From an uncultured Chloroflexia bacterium (GTDB lineage Bacteria; Chloroflexota; Limnocylindria; Limnocylindrales; CSP1-4): a DNA stretch of 64,000 nucleotides. The position numbers and the translations under genes are program-made. The stretch spans positions 1,184,001 to 1,248,000 of the forward strand of contig CAWFXA010000002.1 in the NCBI GenBank assembly GCA_963819655.1. Reading direction: 5' to 3'. Shown piece after piece: positions 3,069-64,000 of this stretch. The notes below the pieces were generated by a model, which saw only the letters and a list, made by a program, of their open reading frames with translations, was not told where the DNA came from and ran no database searches. The stretch's first letter is position 1. The number at the start of each line of letters is the position of its first letter.

Positions 3069-3595
3069 CCCGGTCGATCTACCGCCCGCCGTGGCGGATC
3101 GACGTGGTCGTGCGCGACGGCGTCCGGTCGCCGGTCGCGGGTGCCACGCTCGCGCGGACCGTTGCGGCGGCGCTCGACCAGGTCGCTGCTCCATCGCCCG
3201 CGTCGATCGGGCTGATCCTGACGGACGACACCGAGCTTGCGGTGCTGAACGCTGCCCACATGGGCAAGCGAGGACCGACCGACGTCCTGTCGTTTCCGCT
3301 GCTCCCCCCATCCGCCTTCGCGCGCGGGGCGTCTGCGCCGGCCGTCCCGCGCCCGCCCGGGACTCGCATCCACCTCGGCGACGTCGTCGTGTCGGTCGAG
3401 CGGGCGATCGAGCAGGCCGAGACCGGCCGTGGCGGCCAGACCGGCGATATCCGATGGTCCCCGGCGCAAGAGTTGCGCCTGCTCGTCACCCACGGCGTGC
3501 TCCATGTCTGCGGCTGGGACCATGCCTCACCGGACGAGGAAGCCGCGATGCGGGCCGTCGAGCAGCGACTGCTCGGGTCCGGACTCAGGCGGTGA
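3065..3595 (+). CDS. ybeY: rRNA maturation endoribonuclease YbeY
   Basis: GTG overlaps upstream TGA; LNAAHMGKRGPTDVLSFP, HLGDVVVS, HGVLHVCGWDH zinc motif. Confidence 0.9.
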   Translation: MTRSIYRPPWRIDVVVRDGVRSPVAGATLARTVAAALDQVAAPSPASIGLILTDDTELAVLNAAHMGKRGPTDVLSFPLLPPSAFARGASAPAVPRPPGTRIHLGDVVVSVERAIEQAETGRGGQTGDIRWSPAQELRLLVTHGVLHVCGWDHASPDEEAAMRAVEQRLLGSGLRR

Positions 3596-4034
3596 TCTCG
3601 GGCAGGCCGTCTTCCATCAGGACCGGTTGCGGCAGGATGCTGGTGAGGAATGCAAGTCGCCGCAGCCCGTCATGGACCTGCAATGGGTCGTAGGGCAGTG
3701 CCATCGCTTCGAGCTCCCGATGGATCGATCGGGCGATCCGAGTGGCCTGGAGGCCCGGCAGCGTCGGGCGGAGATAGCGCGTTCGCCGATCCCGTCGCGA
3801 GGGCTCGCTCCGGATGTAGCCACGATCGACGAGTCTTGCCACCAGGCTGGTGAAGGTCGACTGCCGCATCCCAAGCTTTCGTCGGATCGCGGCGGCTGTT
3901 GCGCGTTCGTCCTCGAAGGCAGAGGCGAGGACCAGGTACTCGCTCGCAGAGAGGCCTGTCTCTACGATGTGGTCCCCGACGCGATGGGCAAGCTCATTGC
4001 GGGCTTTCGTCAGGGTGGTGAGGTAGTGCGGCAT
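3585..4034 (-). CDS. MarR family transcriptional regulator
   Basis: SD AGGAG before ATG; winged helix STFTSLVARLVDRGYIRSEPSRRDRRTRYLRPT. Confidence 0.8.
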   Translation of the reverse strand: MPHYLTTLTKARNELAHRVGDHIVETGLSASEYLVLASAFEDERATAAAIRRKLGMRQSTFTSLVARLVDRGYIRSEPSRRDRRTRYLRPTLPGLQATRIARSIHRELEAMALPYDPLQVHDGLRRLAFLTSILPQPVLMEDGLPEITA

Positions 4035-59507: not shown

Positions 59508-59531
59508 CCGCCGTCCCCTCGCTTGCCCACG

Positions 59532-60371
59532 ATGGCCCAGTTCATCGCCCGCCTCGAGCGCTTCGACCTCGTCGGATCGACGAATGACGTCGTCCGGAGC
59601 TGGCTGGCGGACGGCACGCCCGAGGTCTGCCTGGCGATCGCCGACGAACAATCGGCGGGGCGTGGGCGAGATGGCCGGACGTGGTCGGCTCCGGCGGGGG
59701 CCGCGCTCCTTCTGTCGGCTGGTTTCCGGCCGTCGTGGCTCGCTGCAGCTCAGCTGTGGCGGTTGGCGGCTTCGGTGTCGCTGGCGATGGCCGAGGCAGG
59801 CGAGTCGATCGTGGGGCTCCCCGCTGGCTCGATCCGTCTCAAGTGGCCGAACGACCTGGTGGTCGAAGCGGAGGCCGGCGTTCGCAAGCTGGCTGGAGTC
59901 CTCGGAGAATCGACGGGCATCGGGACCGACGATCCGCGTGCCGTCATCGGCATCGGCGTGAACGGCGATTGGCCGACGGATGCGTTCCCGGCGGACCTCG
60001 CCGGCACGATGACGTCACTCCGCGCCCTTGCAGCCGGCCGGCCGATCGACCACGCAGCCCTTCTGGACGCGTTCGTCGAACGCCTTGAAGGACGGGTTGT
60101 CGCGTTGCGCGACGGCCGGTTCGACGTAGACGACTGGGCGGACCGGCAGGTCACGACAGGCCGCGCTGTCGTGCTGATCTCACCGGGCGGGGATGCCACG
60201 ACGGTCAGGGCGCTCGGCGTCGACCCGTCGAGCGGCGTGCTCGTCGTTGCGGATCCGACTGTCGATGGCGGCCAGCGCACGGTCGTCGTGGGCGAGATCC
60301 GTCATGTCCGGGTGCCGGCGATCCCGGAGACCGCCGCGACGTCGGCGGCTGCGGCGCAGGCACGGGTGTAA
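59532..60371 (+). CDS. birA: Biotin--protein ligase (no N-terminal HTH)
   Basis: GSTND, QSAGRGRDGRTW, KWPND, KLAGVL, GIGVN. Confidence 0.92.
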   Translation: MAQFIARLERFDLVGSTNDVVRSWLADGTPEVCLAIADEQSAGRGRDGRTWSAPAGAALLLSAGFRPSWLAAAQLWRLAASVSLAMAEAGESIVGLPAGSIRLKWPNDLVVEAEAGVRKLAGVLGESTGIGTDDPRAVIGIGVNGDWPTDAFPADLAGTMTSLRALAAGRPIDHAALLDAFVERLEGRVVALRDGRFDVDDWADRQVTTGRAVVLISPGGDATTVRALGVDPSSGVLVVADPTVDGGQRTVVVGEIRHVRVPAIPETAATSAAAAQARV

Positions 60372-60375
60372 CGCG

Positions 60376-61014
60376 ATGGCCCGTCCGGCATTGAGGAAGA
60401 CGACGCGGTCCCAGCAGTCCGCTCGCCCACGTCTTGCCCACCTCGATCTTGATCGGTCGCTCGTGGATGCGGCACGGGCCGACCCCGCGCGGTTCGACGC
60501 GCTGTACCGGAAGTACGTTGCCCAGGTGTACAACTACGCGGTCTACGAGCTCGGCGACCATCACGAGGCAGAGGACGCCACGGAGCGGACGTTCCTGTCC
60601 GCCCTGGCTGGCCTGCCGCGGTTCGAGGAGCGCGCCCTCCCGAGGGACGGCGAGGGCGCGTCGACGTTCCGCATCTGGCTGTTCCGGATCGCCCGGAACG
60701 TCGTCAACGAGCGACGCCGTCGCTGGCGCCGCCGGCCCGAAGCACCGCTCGACCTGGCGCTCAGCGCCCCCGACCCGACCGACATCGAGCACGCCGTCGT
60801 CGCGCGCGAATCGGCGCTGTCGGCGTGGCGCGCGGTCGATCGTCTGAGCGGGGATCGCCGGCGCGCTGTCATCCTGCGTTTCGTCCACGAGATGTCGACC
60901 GCCGAGATCGCCGCCATCCTCGGCCGGTCGGAGGGAGCGGTCCGGGTCCTGATCCATCGCGGCCTGCGCGGCGTCGCACGCGACCTGCGCGACCGTCGCG
61001 AGGGGAGTGCGTGA
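60376..61014 (+). CDS. ECF RNA polymerase sigma factor
   Basis: FDALYRKY, EAEDATERTF, FRIWLFRIARN (region 2); STAEIAAILGRSEGAVRVLIHRG (region 4). Confidence 0.92.
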   Translation: MARPALRKTTRSQQSARPRLAHLDLDRSLVDAARADPARFDALYRKYVAQVYNYAVYELGDHHEAEDATERTFLSALAGLPRFEERALPRDGEGASTFRIWLFRIARNVVNERRRRWRRRPEAPLDLALSAPDPTDIEHAVVARESALSAWRAVDRLSGDRRRAVILRFVHEMSTAEIAAILGRSEGAVRVLIHRGLRGVARDLRDRREGSA

Positions 61015-61457
61015 CCGTCGGGTCGTCCGCGCGTGACGGGGAGATCGAGGCGCTCGTGGTCGATCGATATCTCGAATCGCTGCTCGCGCGCGCGCCGCGC
61101 GACACGGCGGACGTGCCCGAGGACCTGCGGGTGACCGCCGAGCGGCTGGCGACCGGCCTGCCGCGCTATCACCCGTCCTTCCGCTTCGAGGATGAGCTGG
61201 CCGCGCGCCTCGCGCTGGCCGCGGGTTCGGCGACCGGCACGATCGGCGAGGTGATCGACTTCCGCGCGCCGCGGCCGCGCGACCGCGGCGCGACCGATGA
61301 CGGCCGTGGCCAGGTTCGCCCGGTGGTGATCGGCGGCGTGGTCACATCGGCGGCGATCTCGCTCGCGGCCGCGTGGATGGCGTGGCGGCGCGGCCGGCCG
61401 CCCGCCGACGCGATGACGCGCGCCATGCGCGCCGTGGCCCGGACGAGGATCGTCTGA
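61011..61457 (+). CDS. Putative single-TM anti-sigma factor
   Basis: GTG overlaps sigma stop; PSFRFEDELAARL helix; one TM; stop overlaps accD ATG. Confidence 0.6.
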   Translation: MTVGSSARDGEIEALVVDRYLESLLARAPRDTADVPEDLRVTAERLATGLPRYHPSFRFEDELAARLALAAGSATGTIGEVIDFRAPRPRDRGATDDGRGQVRPVVIGGVVTSAAISLAAAWMAWRRGRPPADAMTRAMRAVARTRIV

Positions 61458-63433
61458 TGCCGCTCAAGCTGCCCTCGTTCCGCGCCCGGCGCGATGTCTA
61501 CCCGCCGGACCTGTGGACCAAGTGCCCGACGTGCTCGACGATGCTGTTCAACAAGCAGCTCGAGAAGAACCTCAGGGTCTGCACCACGTGCGGCCACCAC
61601 TTCCGCCTGTCGGCCGAGGCACGCCTGGACCACCTGCTCGATCCGGGCACCTGGTCGGAGCGCGACCCCGGGCTGCAATCGGTCGACGCGCTCGGGTTCG
61701 TCGACCAGAAGCCCTACCCGGACCGGCTCGCTGCGGCCCAGCTCGCCACCGGCATGCGCGACGCGGCCGTTTGGGGCACAGGGTCGATCGGCGGCCACGA
61801 GATCGCGATCTGCGTGATGGATTTCGGGTTCATGGGCGGGTCGATGGGCGCGGTCGTCGGGGAGAAGGTCACACGGGCAGCCGAGCACGCGCTCGCCGCG
61901 CGGGTGCCGTTGGTCGTCGTGAGTGCGTCGGGCGGTGCCCGGATGCAGGAGGGCACGCTCGCGCTCATGCAGCTCGCCAAGACGCTTGCTGCGCTCGAGC
62001 GACTGCGGGCGAGCGGCGTGCCGTTCTTCTCGGTCCTGTCCGACCCCACGACCGGCGGCGTCTTCGCGTCGTTCGCCGCGGTCGGCGACGTCAATATCGC
62101 GGAGCCCGACGCGCTGATCGGATTCGCGGGGGCACGCGTGACGGCCGGGACGATCGCGGCGGAGCTGCCGCCTGGGTTCCAGCGGGCCGAGTTCCTGTTC
62201 AGCCACGGCTTCGTCGACCGGGTCGTCGCGCGGTCGGAGCTGCACGATGAGCTCGCTAGCCTGCTCCGACTGCTCCCGTCGCGCGGCGCGTTCGTCGAGC
62301 CGGAACCCGACGAGGATGTGCCGGCTTTCCGGCCATTCTCGTTCCTGACGACGATCGCCGACCGGGTGGGTGAGCTCGCGAACGGCGACGGCGCGACCGA
62401 CGACGACGAGGCCGCAGCTCCGACGCCGCCCGTCACGGTGCCCGCCGTGGATCCGGACGGTGCCGTGGCGATCGCGCCCTTGAACGACAAGGCACGCGAC
62501 GACGTGTGGGCCCGCGTCCAGCTCGCTCGCAGCCTGCGCAGGCCCCGGACGCTCGAATTCCTCGACGCGATGGCCGACGAGTTCGTCGAGCTGCACGGCG
62601 ATCGCCTGTTCGGCGACGACGCCGCGATCGTGGCCGGTCTGGCACGCATCGGTGGCAGGCGCCTAGCGGTGATCGGCCAGCAGAAGGGCGCGGACACCGA
62701 CGAGAACATCCGGCGCAACTTCGGCATGCCCCATCCCGAGGGCTATCGCAAGGCCATGCGGGTCATGGAGCTCGCCGAGCGTGCCGGCCTGCCGGTCGTC
62801 ACGTTCGTTGACGTCCCCGGCGCCCACCCGGGTCCAGAGTCGGAGGAGCGCGGCATCGCCGAGGCCATCGCCCGCTCGATCGGCCTGATGAGCCGCCTCC
62901 GGACGCCGATCGTGACGGTCATCACGGGGGAAGGCGGCTCCGGCGGGGCGTTGGCCATCGCGGTCGGCGACGTCGTGATCGCCCTCGAGAACGCGGTGTA
63001 TTCCGTCATCAGTCCCGAAGGCTGTGCGTCGATCCTGTGGCGGACGTCGGACGAAGCCGCGACCGCGGCCGCCGCGATGCGGATGTCGGCGGCCGACCAA
63101 CACGCGCTCGGCGTGATCGACATCGTGGTGCCGGAGCCAGGCGAGGGCGCACACGCAGAGCCCGAGGCGACAGCCGATCGGCTCCGCTCGATCATCCTCG
63201 ACAGGCTCGACGCGCTCGCTCCGCTGCCGATCGACACGCTTCTCGAGCAGCGCTACCGACGCTACCGTGCTCTGGGCGCCTACACTGAGGTCGCTCGACC
63301 CGAGGTGCCCGGGCGCGTGGACCGGAGTCTCGCCGATCGCCTGCGCGATCTGCTCGATCCGGCCCGGCGGGGACTCGTCGGGTTCGAAGGCTGGTCCCGT
63401 GACGACGATCCACCGGCTCGCGAGGAGGTATAG
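61457..63433 (+). CDS. accDA: Fused acetyl-CoA carboxylase carboxyltransferase beta+alpha
   Basis: AccD: WTKCPTC..C..CGHH, FMGGSMG, SGGARMQEG, PTTGGV; AccA: FVELHGDR, RNFGMPHPEGYRKA, GEGGSGGALA, YSVISPEGCASILW. Confidence 0.93.
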   Translation: MPLKLPSFRARRDVYPPDLWTKCPTCSTMLFNKQLEKNLRVCTTCGHHFRLSAEARLDHLLDPGTWSERDPGLQSVDALGFVDQKPYPDRLAAAQLATGMRDAAVWGTGSIGGHEIAICVMDFGFMGGSMGAVVGEKVTRAAEHALAARVPLVVVSASGGARMQEGTLALMQLAKTLAALERLRASGVPFFSVLSDPTTGGVFASFAAVGDVNIAEPDALIGFAGARVTAGTIAAELPPGFQRAEFLFSHGFVDRVVARSELHDELASLLRLLPSRGAFVEPEPDEDVPAFRPFSFLTTIADRVGELANGDGATDDDEAAAPTPPVTVPAVDPDGAVAIAPLNDKARDDVWARVQLARSLRRPRTLEFLDAMADEFVELHGDRLFGDDAAIVAGLARIGGRRLAVIGQQKGADTDENIRRNFGMPHPEGYRKAMRVMELAERAGLPVVTFVDVPGAHPGPESEERGIAEAIARSIGLMSRLRTPIVTVITGEGGSGGALAIAVGDVVIALENAVYSVISPEGCASILWRTSDEAATAAAAMRMSAADQHALGVIDIVVPEPGEGAHAEPEATADRLRSIILDRLDALAPLPIDTLLEQRYRRYRALGAYTEVARPEVPGRVDRSLADRLRDLLDPARRGLVGFEGWSRDDDPPAREEV

Positions 63434-63436
63434 CGC

Positions 63437-64000
63437 GTGCCAGATCAGGTACCGGCCGACGCCCGACGATCGCGTGATGACGGCGAGCGTGCCGCCGACC
63501 ACGCAGCGATCGATCGCCTCACCGGCGAGCTCCTGCCCGCGCTGATCGCGAAGCTCGGGGCGACGGGCCTCGGCGAGCTCGAGGTGCGAGAGGGAGCCTG
63601 GCGCGTGAGGCTCCGGCGTCCCGCAGGTCCGCCAGTCGGCACCCGCGAGCGTCGTGCCAGCGATCGTGGCGGCGCCGCCGACCGGCTGACGGAGCGGTTG
63701 CCCGAGCGGCCGCCCCGCGCCCAGCACCTGCATCCCCACCCGGAACCCCCGGCCACAGCCCGTTCGGATTCGCGGAGCGTGGCCACGTCACCGGCGGTCG
63801 GCATCTACCAGCCGCGCAAGGACCTGACGATCGGCTCGCGCGTGCGCGCCGGAGATCGATTGGGTGCTGTCGACATGCTCGGCGTCGCGCAGGAGGTGGT
63901 CGCCCCGATCGACGGCGTCGTGGGCACCAGCCTGGTCGAGCCTGGCGAGGCCGTCGAGTACGGCCAGGAGCTGATCGTCGTCGAGCTCGCCGTCCCGATG
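63437..64000 (+). CDS. BCCP-like biotinyl-domain protein lacking the biotin-accepting Lys (runs off window end)
   Basis: Manual translation (absent from ORF track): SD GAGGAGG, GTG; LGELEVREGAWRVRLRR N-domain; SPAVGIY...GDRLGAVDMLGVAQEVVAPIDG...VEPGEAVEYGQEL. Confidence 0.85.
   Translation, partial: MPDQVPADARRSRDDGERAADHAAIDRLTGELLPALIAKLGATGLGELEVREGAWRVRLRRPAGPPVGTRERRASDRGGAADRLTERLPERPPRAQHLHPHPEPPATARSDSRSVATSPAVGIYQPRKDLTIGSRVRAGDRLGAVDMLGVAQEVVAPIDGVVGTSLVEPGEAVEYGQELIVVELAVPM

Follow-up and report, generated by a model that had tools for sequence, protein, structure and literature searches.

A lysine-less paralogue of the biotin carboxyl carrier protein in the acetyl-CoA carboxylase gene cluster of Limnocylindria: a candidate bacterial BADC-like subunit

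Introduction

What might a BCCP (biotin carboxyl carrier protein, or AccB) that cannot carry biotin do among the genes of acetyl-CoA carboxylase (ACCase)? The question is raised by a stretch of 64,000 nucleotides, here called the window, from an uncultured Chloroflexota bacterium of the class Limnocylindria (genome G000; G000:C2:1184001-1248000). At its 3′ end, immediately behind a gene fusing accD and accA (accDA), lies a gene whose product has the layout of AccB but carries glycine in place of the biotinyl-lysine. A preliminary description made from the window had suggested that the product might be a bacterial subunit or regulator of ACCase resembling BADC. BADC proteins are BCCP paralogues without the biotinylation motif; they are reported to bind both biotin carboxylase (BC) and BCCP, and have been interpreted in two ways, as competitors and as glue (PMC11926652, PMC12706156, PMC10440990, PMC13585458).

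The analysis supports that suggestion. The best explanation appears to be that the lysine-less protein is a non-catalytic, BADC-like fifth subunit of ACCase, constitutive in Limnocylindria; on balance this is somewhat more probable than all other readings, judging from sequence, structural modelling and analogy. It builds on what is shown here: the protein is homologous to AccB and has lost the lysine, the family is conserved, the gene stands among acc genes, and the same genomes also encode a canonical AccB. Dummy-carrier subunits of heteromeric ACCase have been described for plants and algae, and whether BADC acts as glue or as brake is still disputed; a bacterial counterpart would offer a simpler system for that question. 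In the limited collection of literature searched, no published case of a lysine-less bacterial BCCP was found.

Results and discussion

An AccB-like protein with glycine at the biotinyl site

The lysine-less gene, like all features of the window described here, is on the forward strand. It begins with a GTG codon at 63437, 3 bases past the accDA stop codon and 8 bases after a GAGGAGG ribosome-binding site (63422..63428) located inside the 3′ end of accDA. Comparison of the list of open reading frames (ORFs) with the genome sequence indicates that codons 1 to 188 lie at window positions 63437-64000, in a gene of 196 codons that encodes 196 amino acids; the true end is at 64027, and the final 9 codons, counting the stop, lie outside the window. 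The stop codon overlaps the ATG of the following gene, accC, in the sequence TGATG.

Residues 35-183 of the protein (P0001) align with residues 28-176 of E. coli BCCP (HMMER, 4hr7_B, E 1.4e-8) and cover positions 8-155 of the 156 in the BCCP model TIGR00531, with a score of 38.9 bits against a cut-off of 115.2. The alignment has no gap at the hairpin that bears biotin in AccB, where VDMLGV stands against VEAMKM of the E. coli protein. The hairpin tip D-M-L-G-V (residues 146-150; 63872..63886), defined by this alignment and by conservation in the family, thus replaces E-A-M-K-M, and Gly149, whose codon counted from 63437 is 63881-63883, occupies the biotinyl-lysine site. The segment gdrlgavdmlgvaqevvapidg, for which a gapless alignment to E. 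coli BCCP with Gly at the Lys position had been claimed, does align in this way. The biotinyl-lysine in an (A/V)-M-K-(M/L) hairpin, which defines AccB/BCCP, is therefore absent, and with glycine in its place the protein cannot be the biotin carrier.

The three-part layout of AccB, an N-terminal alpha/beta/beta part, a flexible linker and a C-terminal barrel, is nevertheless complete according to TIGR00531, AlphaFold2 and Foldseek, as the preliminary description had recognised. An AlphaFold2 model, computed from a 36-row alignment, has a mean confidence (pLDDT) of 80.5 and consists of a helix (residues 15-43), a hairpin (47-60), a disordered linker and a barrel (112-184). The N-terminal helix and beta-hairpin together (residues 15-60; 63479..63616; pLDDT about 90) form the AccB-type alpha/beta/beta element. 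The linker (residues 61-111; 63617..63769; pLDDT 44-63) is rich in Pro, Arg and Ala and varies in length and sequence within the family. The lysine-less biotinyl-type beta-barrel (63770..63988; pLDDT about 97) finds the BCCP domains 5gua, 1bdo and 4hr7_G as its top Foldseek matches, with TM-scores by target length of 0.80-0.88. Aligned with E. coli BCCP, and likewise with the canonical AccB encoded in its own genome, it shows a six-residue gap between its first two strands. The position of the gap is, we presume, that of the ‘thumb’ of ACC-type BCCPs.

Conservation of the lysine-less family

The loss of the lysine is not confined to one genome. When 1.84 billion cluster representatives were searched, 1084 matched at E <= 1e-3; the number falls to 285 at 1e-10 and to 45 at 1e-30. 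Among the 150 best matches, each representing a cluster at 50% identity, none has Lys at the biotinyl site, and 146 carry the pattern [DENR][VMLCI]LG[VILM]; the other four are truncated or out of frame there. At closer range, the motif DMLG[VI] is kept in 121 of 121 sequences (P0001 and the 120 best of 3716 matches, 69-99% identity). The earlier view that a single sequencing error could not account for the glycine is borne out by these counts, and relatives with Lys at the site, which would have spoken for lineage-specific loss, did not appear among the 150.

Conservation extends well beyond the hairpin. In 36 diverse members, with identities down to 36%, nine columns are invariant (E47, E49, R58, G133, G139, L148, G149, E174 and G176), and 17 further columns, Y175 among them, are at least 90% conserved. 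The lysine-less family is thus not a product of decay, and the observation itself goes far beyond chance. A decaying accB duplicate, or an artefact of assembly or sequencing, is accordingly extremely improbable. In its favour stand the faster divergence of the gene compared with its neighbours and a set of odd fusion proteins described below; against it stand the conserved columns, the high-confidence barrel, and a frame that is open in all 12 of the best genome matches.

Contigs from RNA libraries of three studies bear on the same point. In the coordinates of locus L002, contig X15 aligns over 3403-3622 with 2 differences, X19 over 3229-3518 with 12, and X17 over 3540-4010 with 18; X15 and X19 span the junction of accDA and the lysine-less gene, and parts of the stretch left uncovered in this comparison carry no meaning. 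Four differences are listed within the barrel for an RNA-library contig (3868, 3874, 3943 and 3961); each is at the third position of its codon, and those at 3868 and 3874, which were checked, are synonymous. This pattern, too, argues against decay.

Could the protein carry a cofactor or modification on some other residue? The hairpin is kept at full length, but no support for such a role was found, and it is very unlikely. No Lys stands in any conserved column among the 36 diverse members; a 76-residue stretch of the barrel is free of Lys in 122 of 146 members, with one Lys in 16 and two in 8; and the only lysines of P0001, K39 and K128, are both at variable columns. Biotinylation at a different Lys, raised beforehand as an outcome that would count against the proposal, is hard to reconcile with a protein in which, by sequence, no Lys is conserved anywhere.

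Twenty-four longer proteins join the lysine-less domain to parts of AccA or AccC. They were considered as natural fusions and rejected: each is a single-sequence cluster, on one or two contigs and with partial coverage, and they are read as frame errors of assembly.

Gene context and the canonical AccB in Limnocylindria

The preliminary description had advised looking beyond the window for accC and a canonical accB, and both are present. The gene directly 3′ of the lysine-less gene is accC (628.5 bits, cut-off 626.5). A canonical accB lies 3.9 kb downstream of the lysine-less gene, between fabF and fabH; its product, P0002, has the biotinylation motif LIEAMKLFN, scores 109.9 bits on TIGR00531 (cut-off 115.2) and shares 26% identity with the lysine-less protein. 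Of 41 relatives, 39 have the lysine-less gene and 39 the canonical accB, the misses being genomes 59-77% complete. Both paralogues are present in eight small-genome relatives.

Within the class the gene is nearly universal. With the family profile at E <= 1e-15, and the tally limited to genomes at least 80% complete, it is found in 195 of 201 Limnocylindria genomes; five of the 201 are unpublished (G122, G131, G156, G102 and G135), all of them matching, and leaving them out gives 190 of 196. Among high-quality genomes of the class, which may include some unpublished ones, 127 of 128 have a match. The canonical AccB of G000 falls below the threshold, so that this genome gives a single match. 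Named matches are ‘Candidatus Limnocylindrales/Limnocylindria’ or generic Chloroflexota metagenome-assembled genomes (MAGs), and the source records label the homologues ‘biotin carboxyl carrier protein’, with PF25917 as the precomputed Pfam label. The products of these homologues would, despite that label, be unable to carry biotin, a point of some weight for annotation. Soil and sediment sequencing runs contained DNA shares of 0.25-0.52, from which no conclusion about habitat was drawn.

The order accDA–lysine-less gene–accC is retained at 11 of 11 loci of the same genus. A wider set of 80 loci from named genome records comprised 70 of Limnocylindria type, seven proteobacterial accB-accC pairs with EAMK, two from Dictyobacter and one from Armatimonadota. 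All 70 Limnocylindria-type loci have the L-G hairpin; accDA precedes the gene in 66 of them and accC follows it in 69, and wherever one of these is missing the contig ends. Canonical accB is found downstream in at least 57 of the 70; of the other 13, 12 end too early, and the thirteenth, L078, is listed elsewhere with accB. Both the xLG motif and the synteny, whose conservation had been named as a check, are therefore preserved across the whole class. At 20 of 69 loci a gap of more than 800 bases separates the lysine-less gene from accC.

Two observations may be added. In a deep clade of Limnocylindria (L107:8339-9433 and 19 other loci) a fabD-like gene, called in L107 from a GHSVGE motif read by eye, stands between the lysine-less gene and accC. 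Loci L070 and L105 carry the Limnocylindria-type accDA–lysine-less gene–accC arrangement and are filed under Methylomirabilota and Solirubrobacterales MAGs, maybe through binning errors.

Predicted docking on biotin carboxylase

Modelling of the complex, another check that had been put forward, places the lysine-less protein on BC. The predicted complex with AccC, computed from alignments of 31 rows for AccC and 36 rows for the lysine-less protein, scored 0.78, against 0.00 for the best of three controls, with at least 32% agreement of contacts between runs and a partner pLDDT of at least 59. On the AccC side the modelled interface comprises residues 34, 49-53, 59, 64-65, 67-69 and 71-73, and on the lysine-less side residues 120-123, 147-148, 150, 172 and 174-177. 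The last of these form the E-Y-G-Q patch (63956..63967), a predicted BC contact by virtue of its conservation and the modelled interface.

The modelled site corresponds to one used by true carriers. According to a preprint, E. coli BCCP binds residues 64-73 of a BC helix in 4HR7 (10.64898/2025.12.30.697075). A further study reports that BCCP, in active filaments, is parked on BC at a site that is not catalytic, and models the first 30 residues of BCCP as an alpha/beta/beta motif from which a barrel is built (PMC11160672). Both sides of the predicted interface are nearly invariant. Of the lysine-less protein, 7 of 12 interface residues are at least 90% conserved, compared with 11 of 61 other barrel residues (one-sided Fisher p = 0.007), and this overlap of interface and conservation is not trivial. 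What the docking model shows is that the lysine-less protein still resembles a BCCP that docks on BC; it is evidence of likeness, not of binding.

The two paralogues differ at this surface. In a column table, V121 and E-Y-G (174-176) reach 100% in each of the two lysine-less groups. In the clade of canonical AccB proteins from the same genomes, the E-Y-G site is occupied by K-A-K (85/60/65%) and the V121 site by T (90%).

A protein that has the fold and the predicted BC site in common with the true carrier, yet no capacity for carboxybiotin, could also act as a competitive negative regulator, which would displace BCCP on BC or within the AccB hub and so lower flux through ACCase, as was first proposed for plant BADC. 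Reviews describe BADC both as competitor and as glue (PMC10440990, PMC11926652). Here, however, the lysine-less gene overlaps or abuts accDA and accC and is kept in nearly every genome of the class, features which fit a fixed subunit better than a conditional brake. A role as competitor is for this reason judged unlikely, though it deserves to be taken seriously.

Relatives outside the class

Lysine-less relatives are also present in other Chloroflexota, where 174 of 301 genomes match the family profile at E <= 1e-8, canonical and lysine-less forms pooled. Twenty of the best-scoring places outside the class were examined. Lys is present in five of them (L163, L164, L179, L180 and L181) and absent in 15, being replaced by Gly in L165, L166, L167, L171, L175 and L182, by Asn in L172, L174, L176, L177 and L178, by Arg in L168 and L170, by Met in L169 and by Ala in L173. 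As far as sampled, the lysine-less family is confined to Chloroflexota and one Armatimonadota locus. That locus, L122:8001-8306 of an Armatimonadota MAG, encodes a BCCP-like protein in which G takes the place of K (ILALGIANEI); the gene precedes an accC by about 350 bases and sits on a very long branch. In one Chloroflexota genome, at L181 (G485:C2, about 1229776-1230312), two Lys-bearing BCCP genes lie 18 kb apart, one of which has IEVMKLMH and is without the E-Y-G patch.

Neighbouring genes were scanned at 14 loci, comprising 11 of the 15 lysine-less places, the canonical loci L163 and L180 and the Armatimonadota locus L122 (44 chosen ORFs of the 107 found). The usual context outside the class is pepP–efp–BCCP-like gene–xseA. 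In L173 and L175 the lysine-less gene has all three neighbours; it has pepP and efp in L165, L166 and L177, and pepP and xseA in L169, L178 and L182. In some genomes the gene at this place is a canonical one with EAMK. The canonical gene of L163 is likewise flanked by pepP, efp and xseA, as is the BCCP-like gene of Dictyobacter aurantiacus at L132. Dictyobacter aurantiacus S27, which carries this gene, without the lysine, at L132:7926-8441, is a cultured strain. Neither accC nor accDA was found within about 3.5 kb at any of the 20 outside places.

Of five genomes with an efp-linked gene that were searched for all biotinyl domains (G365, G351, G267, G370 and G301), the small BCCP-like gene was read in the first four, and each of the four has a separate canonical AccB, with LIEAMKVFN in G365, G351 and G267 and LIEAMKVFT in G370. 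In G000, efp is separated from its neighbour xseA by 278 bases that hold no BCCP-like gene (G000:C3:415077-417186); this empty slot is consistent with relocation of the gene to the acc cluster.

A maximum-likelihood tree of 81 rows contains one branch that parts 33 Lys-bearing from 48 lysine-less rows with support of 90/90, and a single change suffices in 90% of 200 bootstrap trees. The tree is unrooted, has several long branches, and samples rows chosen by the lysine-less profile or pattern, which is a biased sample. The lysine-less group may, from these sequences, have had a single origin, with which the tree is compatible.

These contexts are among the points in favour of a role outside ACCase, whereby the protein would help a different enzyme of the fatty-acid cluster, or one of the other two biotin carboxylases, to dock, and the efp-linked relatives would perhaps be unrelated to lipid synthesis. 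G000 has three biotin carboxylase genes, the other two each with its own carboxyltransferase and biotinyl domain; relatives beyond the class sit in the pepP–efp–xseA context without acc genes; and in the deep clade the fabD-like gene comes between the lysine-less gene and accC, the separation being the wide one noted above. Against this, within the class the gene always follows accDA, and the surface on which the protein is predicted to land is the conserved site of AccC for BCCP. We regard a role outside ACCase as quite improbable, and it is, with the competitor, one of the two main rivals to a fifth subunit.

A fifth subunit of ACCase

As a constitutive subunit, the lysine-less protein would act as follows. 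Although not biotinylatable, it retains both parts by which AccB contacts other proteins. Its barrel is predicted to dock on the N-terminal domain of AccC at helix 64-73, the place at which BCCP of E. coli rests at a distance from the active site. The contacts would be made by a P-A-V-G strand, by the tip of the L-G hairpin and by the E-Y-G-Q patch. Its N-terminal helix-hairpin could join the beta-barrel hub that has been modelled for the N-termini of AccB. In this manner it may hold BC and, through the hub, the real carrier within the complex, while the swinging-arm chemistry would be performed by the separate AccB (LIEAMKLFN). It is proposed as a constitutive structural subunit because it appears to be co-translated with accDA and accC. 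We infer from these features that it would bind its partners, co-assemble with them and serve as a scaffold, not as an inhibitor.

Several points weigh against the fifth-subunit proposal. The scores of the protein are low, as 38.9 bits is far below the TIGR00531 cut-off of 115.2, and the biotinyl domain PF00364 reaches 17.3 bits for a cut-off of 22.1. It also diverges faster than its neighbour, with 57-81% identity compared with 85-95% for AccC at the same loci. The mark that the complex score passes was reached by 58 of the solved complexes tried, 80 in all, and by 2 of the 110 mismatched ones, but since the alignments were self-made these calibration counts apply only approximately; moreover, the E. 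coli BC–BCCP complex (4HR7) is already solved, and the pass may come from the model having memorised it. The conservation of E-Y-G is partly circular, because the proteobacterial rows and loci L053-L132 were found by a VEYG pattern. The RNA-library contigs are only a weak hint of transcription, given that such libraries can hold DNA. Outside the class, lysine-less relatives adjoin efp and xseA, not acc genes, and context favours a role in ACCase only in Limnocylindria and at the one Armatimonadota locus. Finally, the canonical AccB of G370, which adjoins accC, retains the E-Y-G patch, so that a ‘division of labour’ between paralogues is not general.

A bolder version of the fifth-subunit proposal, possible but doubtful, is that Chloroflexota have divided the two jobs of AccB between a pair of old paralogues. 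A lysine-less copy of single origin would dock on BC and form the hub as a permanent fifth subunit, and a second AccB, which has lost the patch in Limnocylindria, would provide only the swinging arm; the principle of BADC would then have been invented independently of plants. If this is true, the structural role of BCCP is separable from its role as carrier.

Comparison with known systems

Like the BADC proteins of plants and green algae (BADC1-3 of Arabidopsis), the lysine-less protein is a BCCP paralogue without the biotinylation motif which occurs beside a true BCCP and with a heteromeric ACCase. Both are said to have L-G at the place of M-K in BCCP, which in BADC forms part of a motif of approximately EQLG. 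The lysine-less protein differs in being bacterial, in being encoded in an acc/fab cluster and in having no transit peptide, and the two are likened by description. Binding of BADC to BC and BCCP is reported in the publications cited above, whereas for the lysine-less protein binding to BC is a prediction of modelling. The abstract of one paper calls BADC unique to the plant enzyme (PMC11926652).

With AccB/BCCP of the E. coli type (TIGR00531; 4HR7, 1BDO) the protein shares the three-part layout, the fold, an alignment from end to end and the predicted BC docking site. It differs in the Gly that stands for the biotinyl-Lys, in the six-residue gap and in a score far under the equivalog cut-off.

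Within the same phylum, Chloroflexus aurantiacus has a fused BC–BCCP protein (BC1) in which a BCCP-derived beta-hairpin serves assembly of the BC tetramer (PMC11077971). The BCCP of BC1 is biotinylated and still has EAMKM; the protein described here is unfused and lacks such a lysine. The AccE epsilon-type subunits of actinobacterial acyl-CoA carboxylases are small and non-catalytic and are said to glue the holoenzyme together (PMC11926652). The lysine-less protein, as proposed, would likewise be a small non-catalytic glue of a carboxylase. AccE belongs to the fused alpha/beta-type carboxylases and is not known to be related to the BCCP-like protein in sequence or fold.

Neighbouring genes of the window

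The lysine-less gene had been placed in a ‘birA-accDA operon’. A tightly packed run from birA to accC does exist, in which every junction overlaps or is 3-4 bases apart, but birA and accDA are not adjacent, as genes for an ECF-type sigma factor and a membrane protein lie between them. The run opens with a gene for a birA-like biotin protein ligase (59523..60371; PF03099, E 1.3e-14), whose stop codon is 4 bases before the ATG of the sigma factor gene (60376..61014; Sigma70_r2 and r4_2). There follows a gene for a 148-residue protein with a hydrophobic stretch and no Pfam family (61011..61457), which overlaps the sigma gene in GTGA and accDA in TGATG. From its position, this membrane protein is possibly an anti-sigma factor, which is a guess. 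Given these overlapping starts and stops, the biotin ligase, the sigma/anti-sigma pair and ACCase may be expressed from one transcript.

The accDA gene (61457..63433) encodes both carboxyltransferase halves, which score 351.7 bits on TIGR00515 and 336.6 bits on TIGR00513, both above the cut-offs, and also matches the Zn ribbon and ACCA domains. Its ORF has 686 codons, and the actual start was placed at the ATG at 61457. The accD and accA halves are joined by an Ala/Asp/Pro-rich linker of roughly 60-80 residues.

Past accC come fabZ, a metallophosphoesterase-like gene, fabF, the second BCCP gene, fabH and fabG; the identities of the four fab genes and of the phosphoesterase gene were read from ORF translations. 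Downstream of fabG, at L002:10584-14105, there are two long ORFs of 740 and 400 amino acids, whose ends are GGDEF-like by eye.

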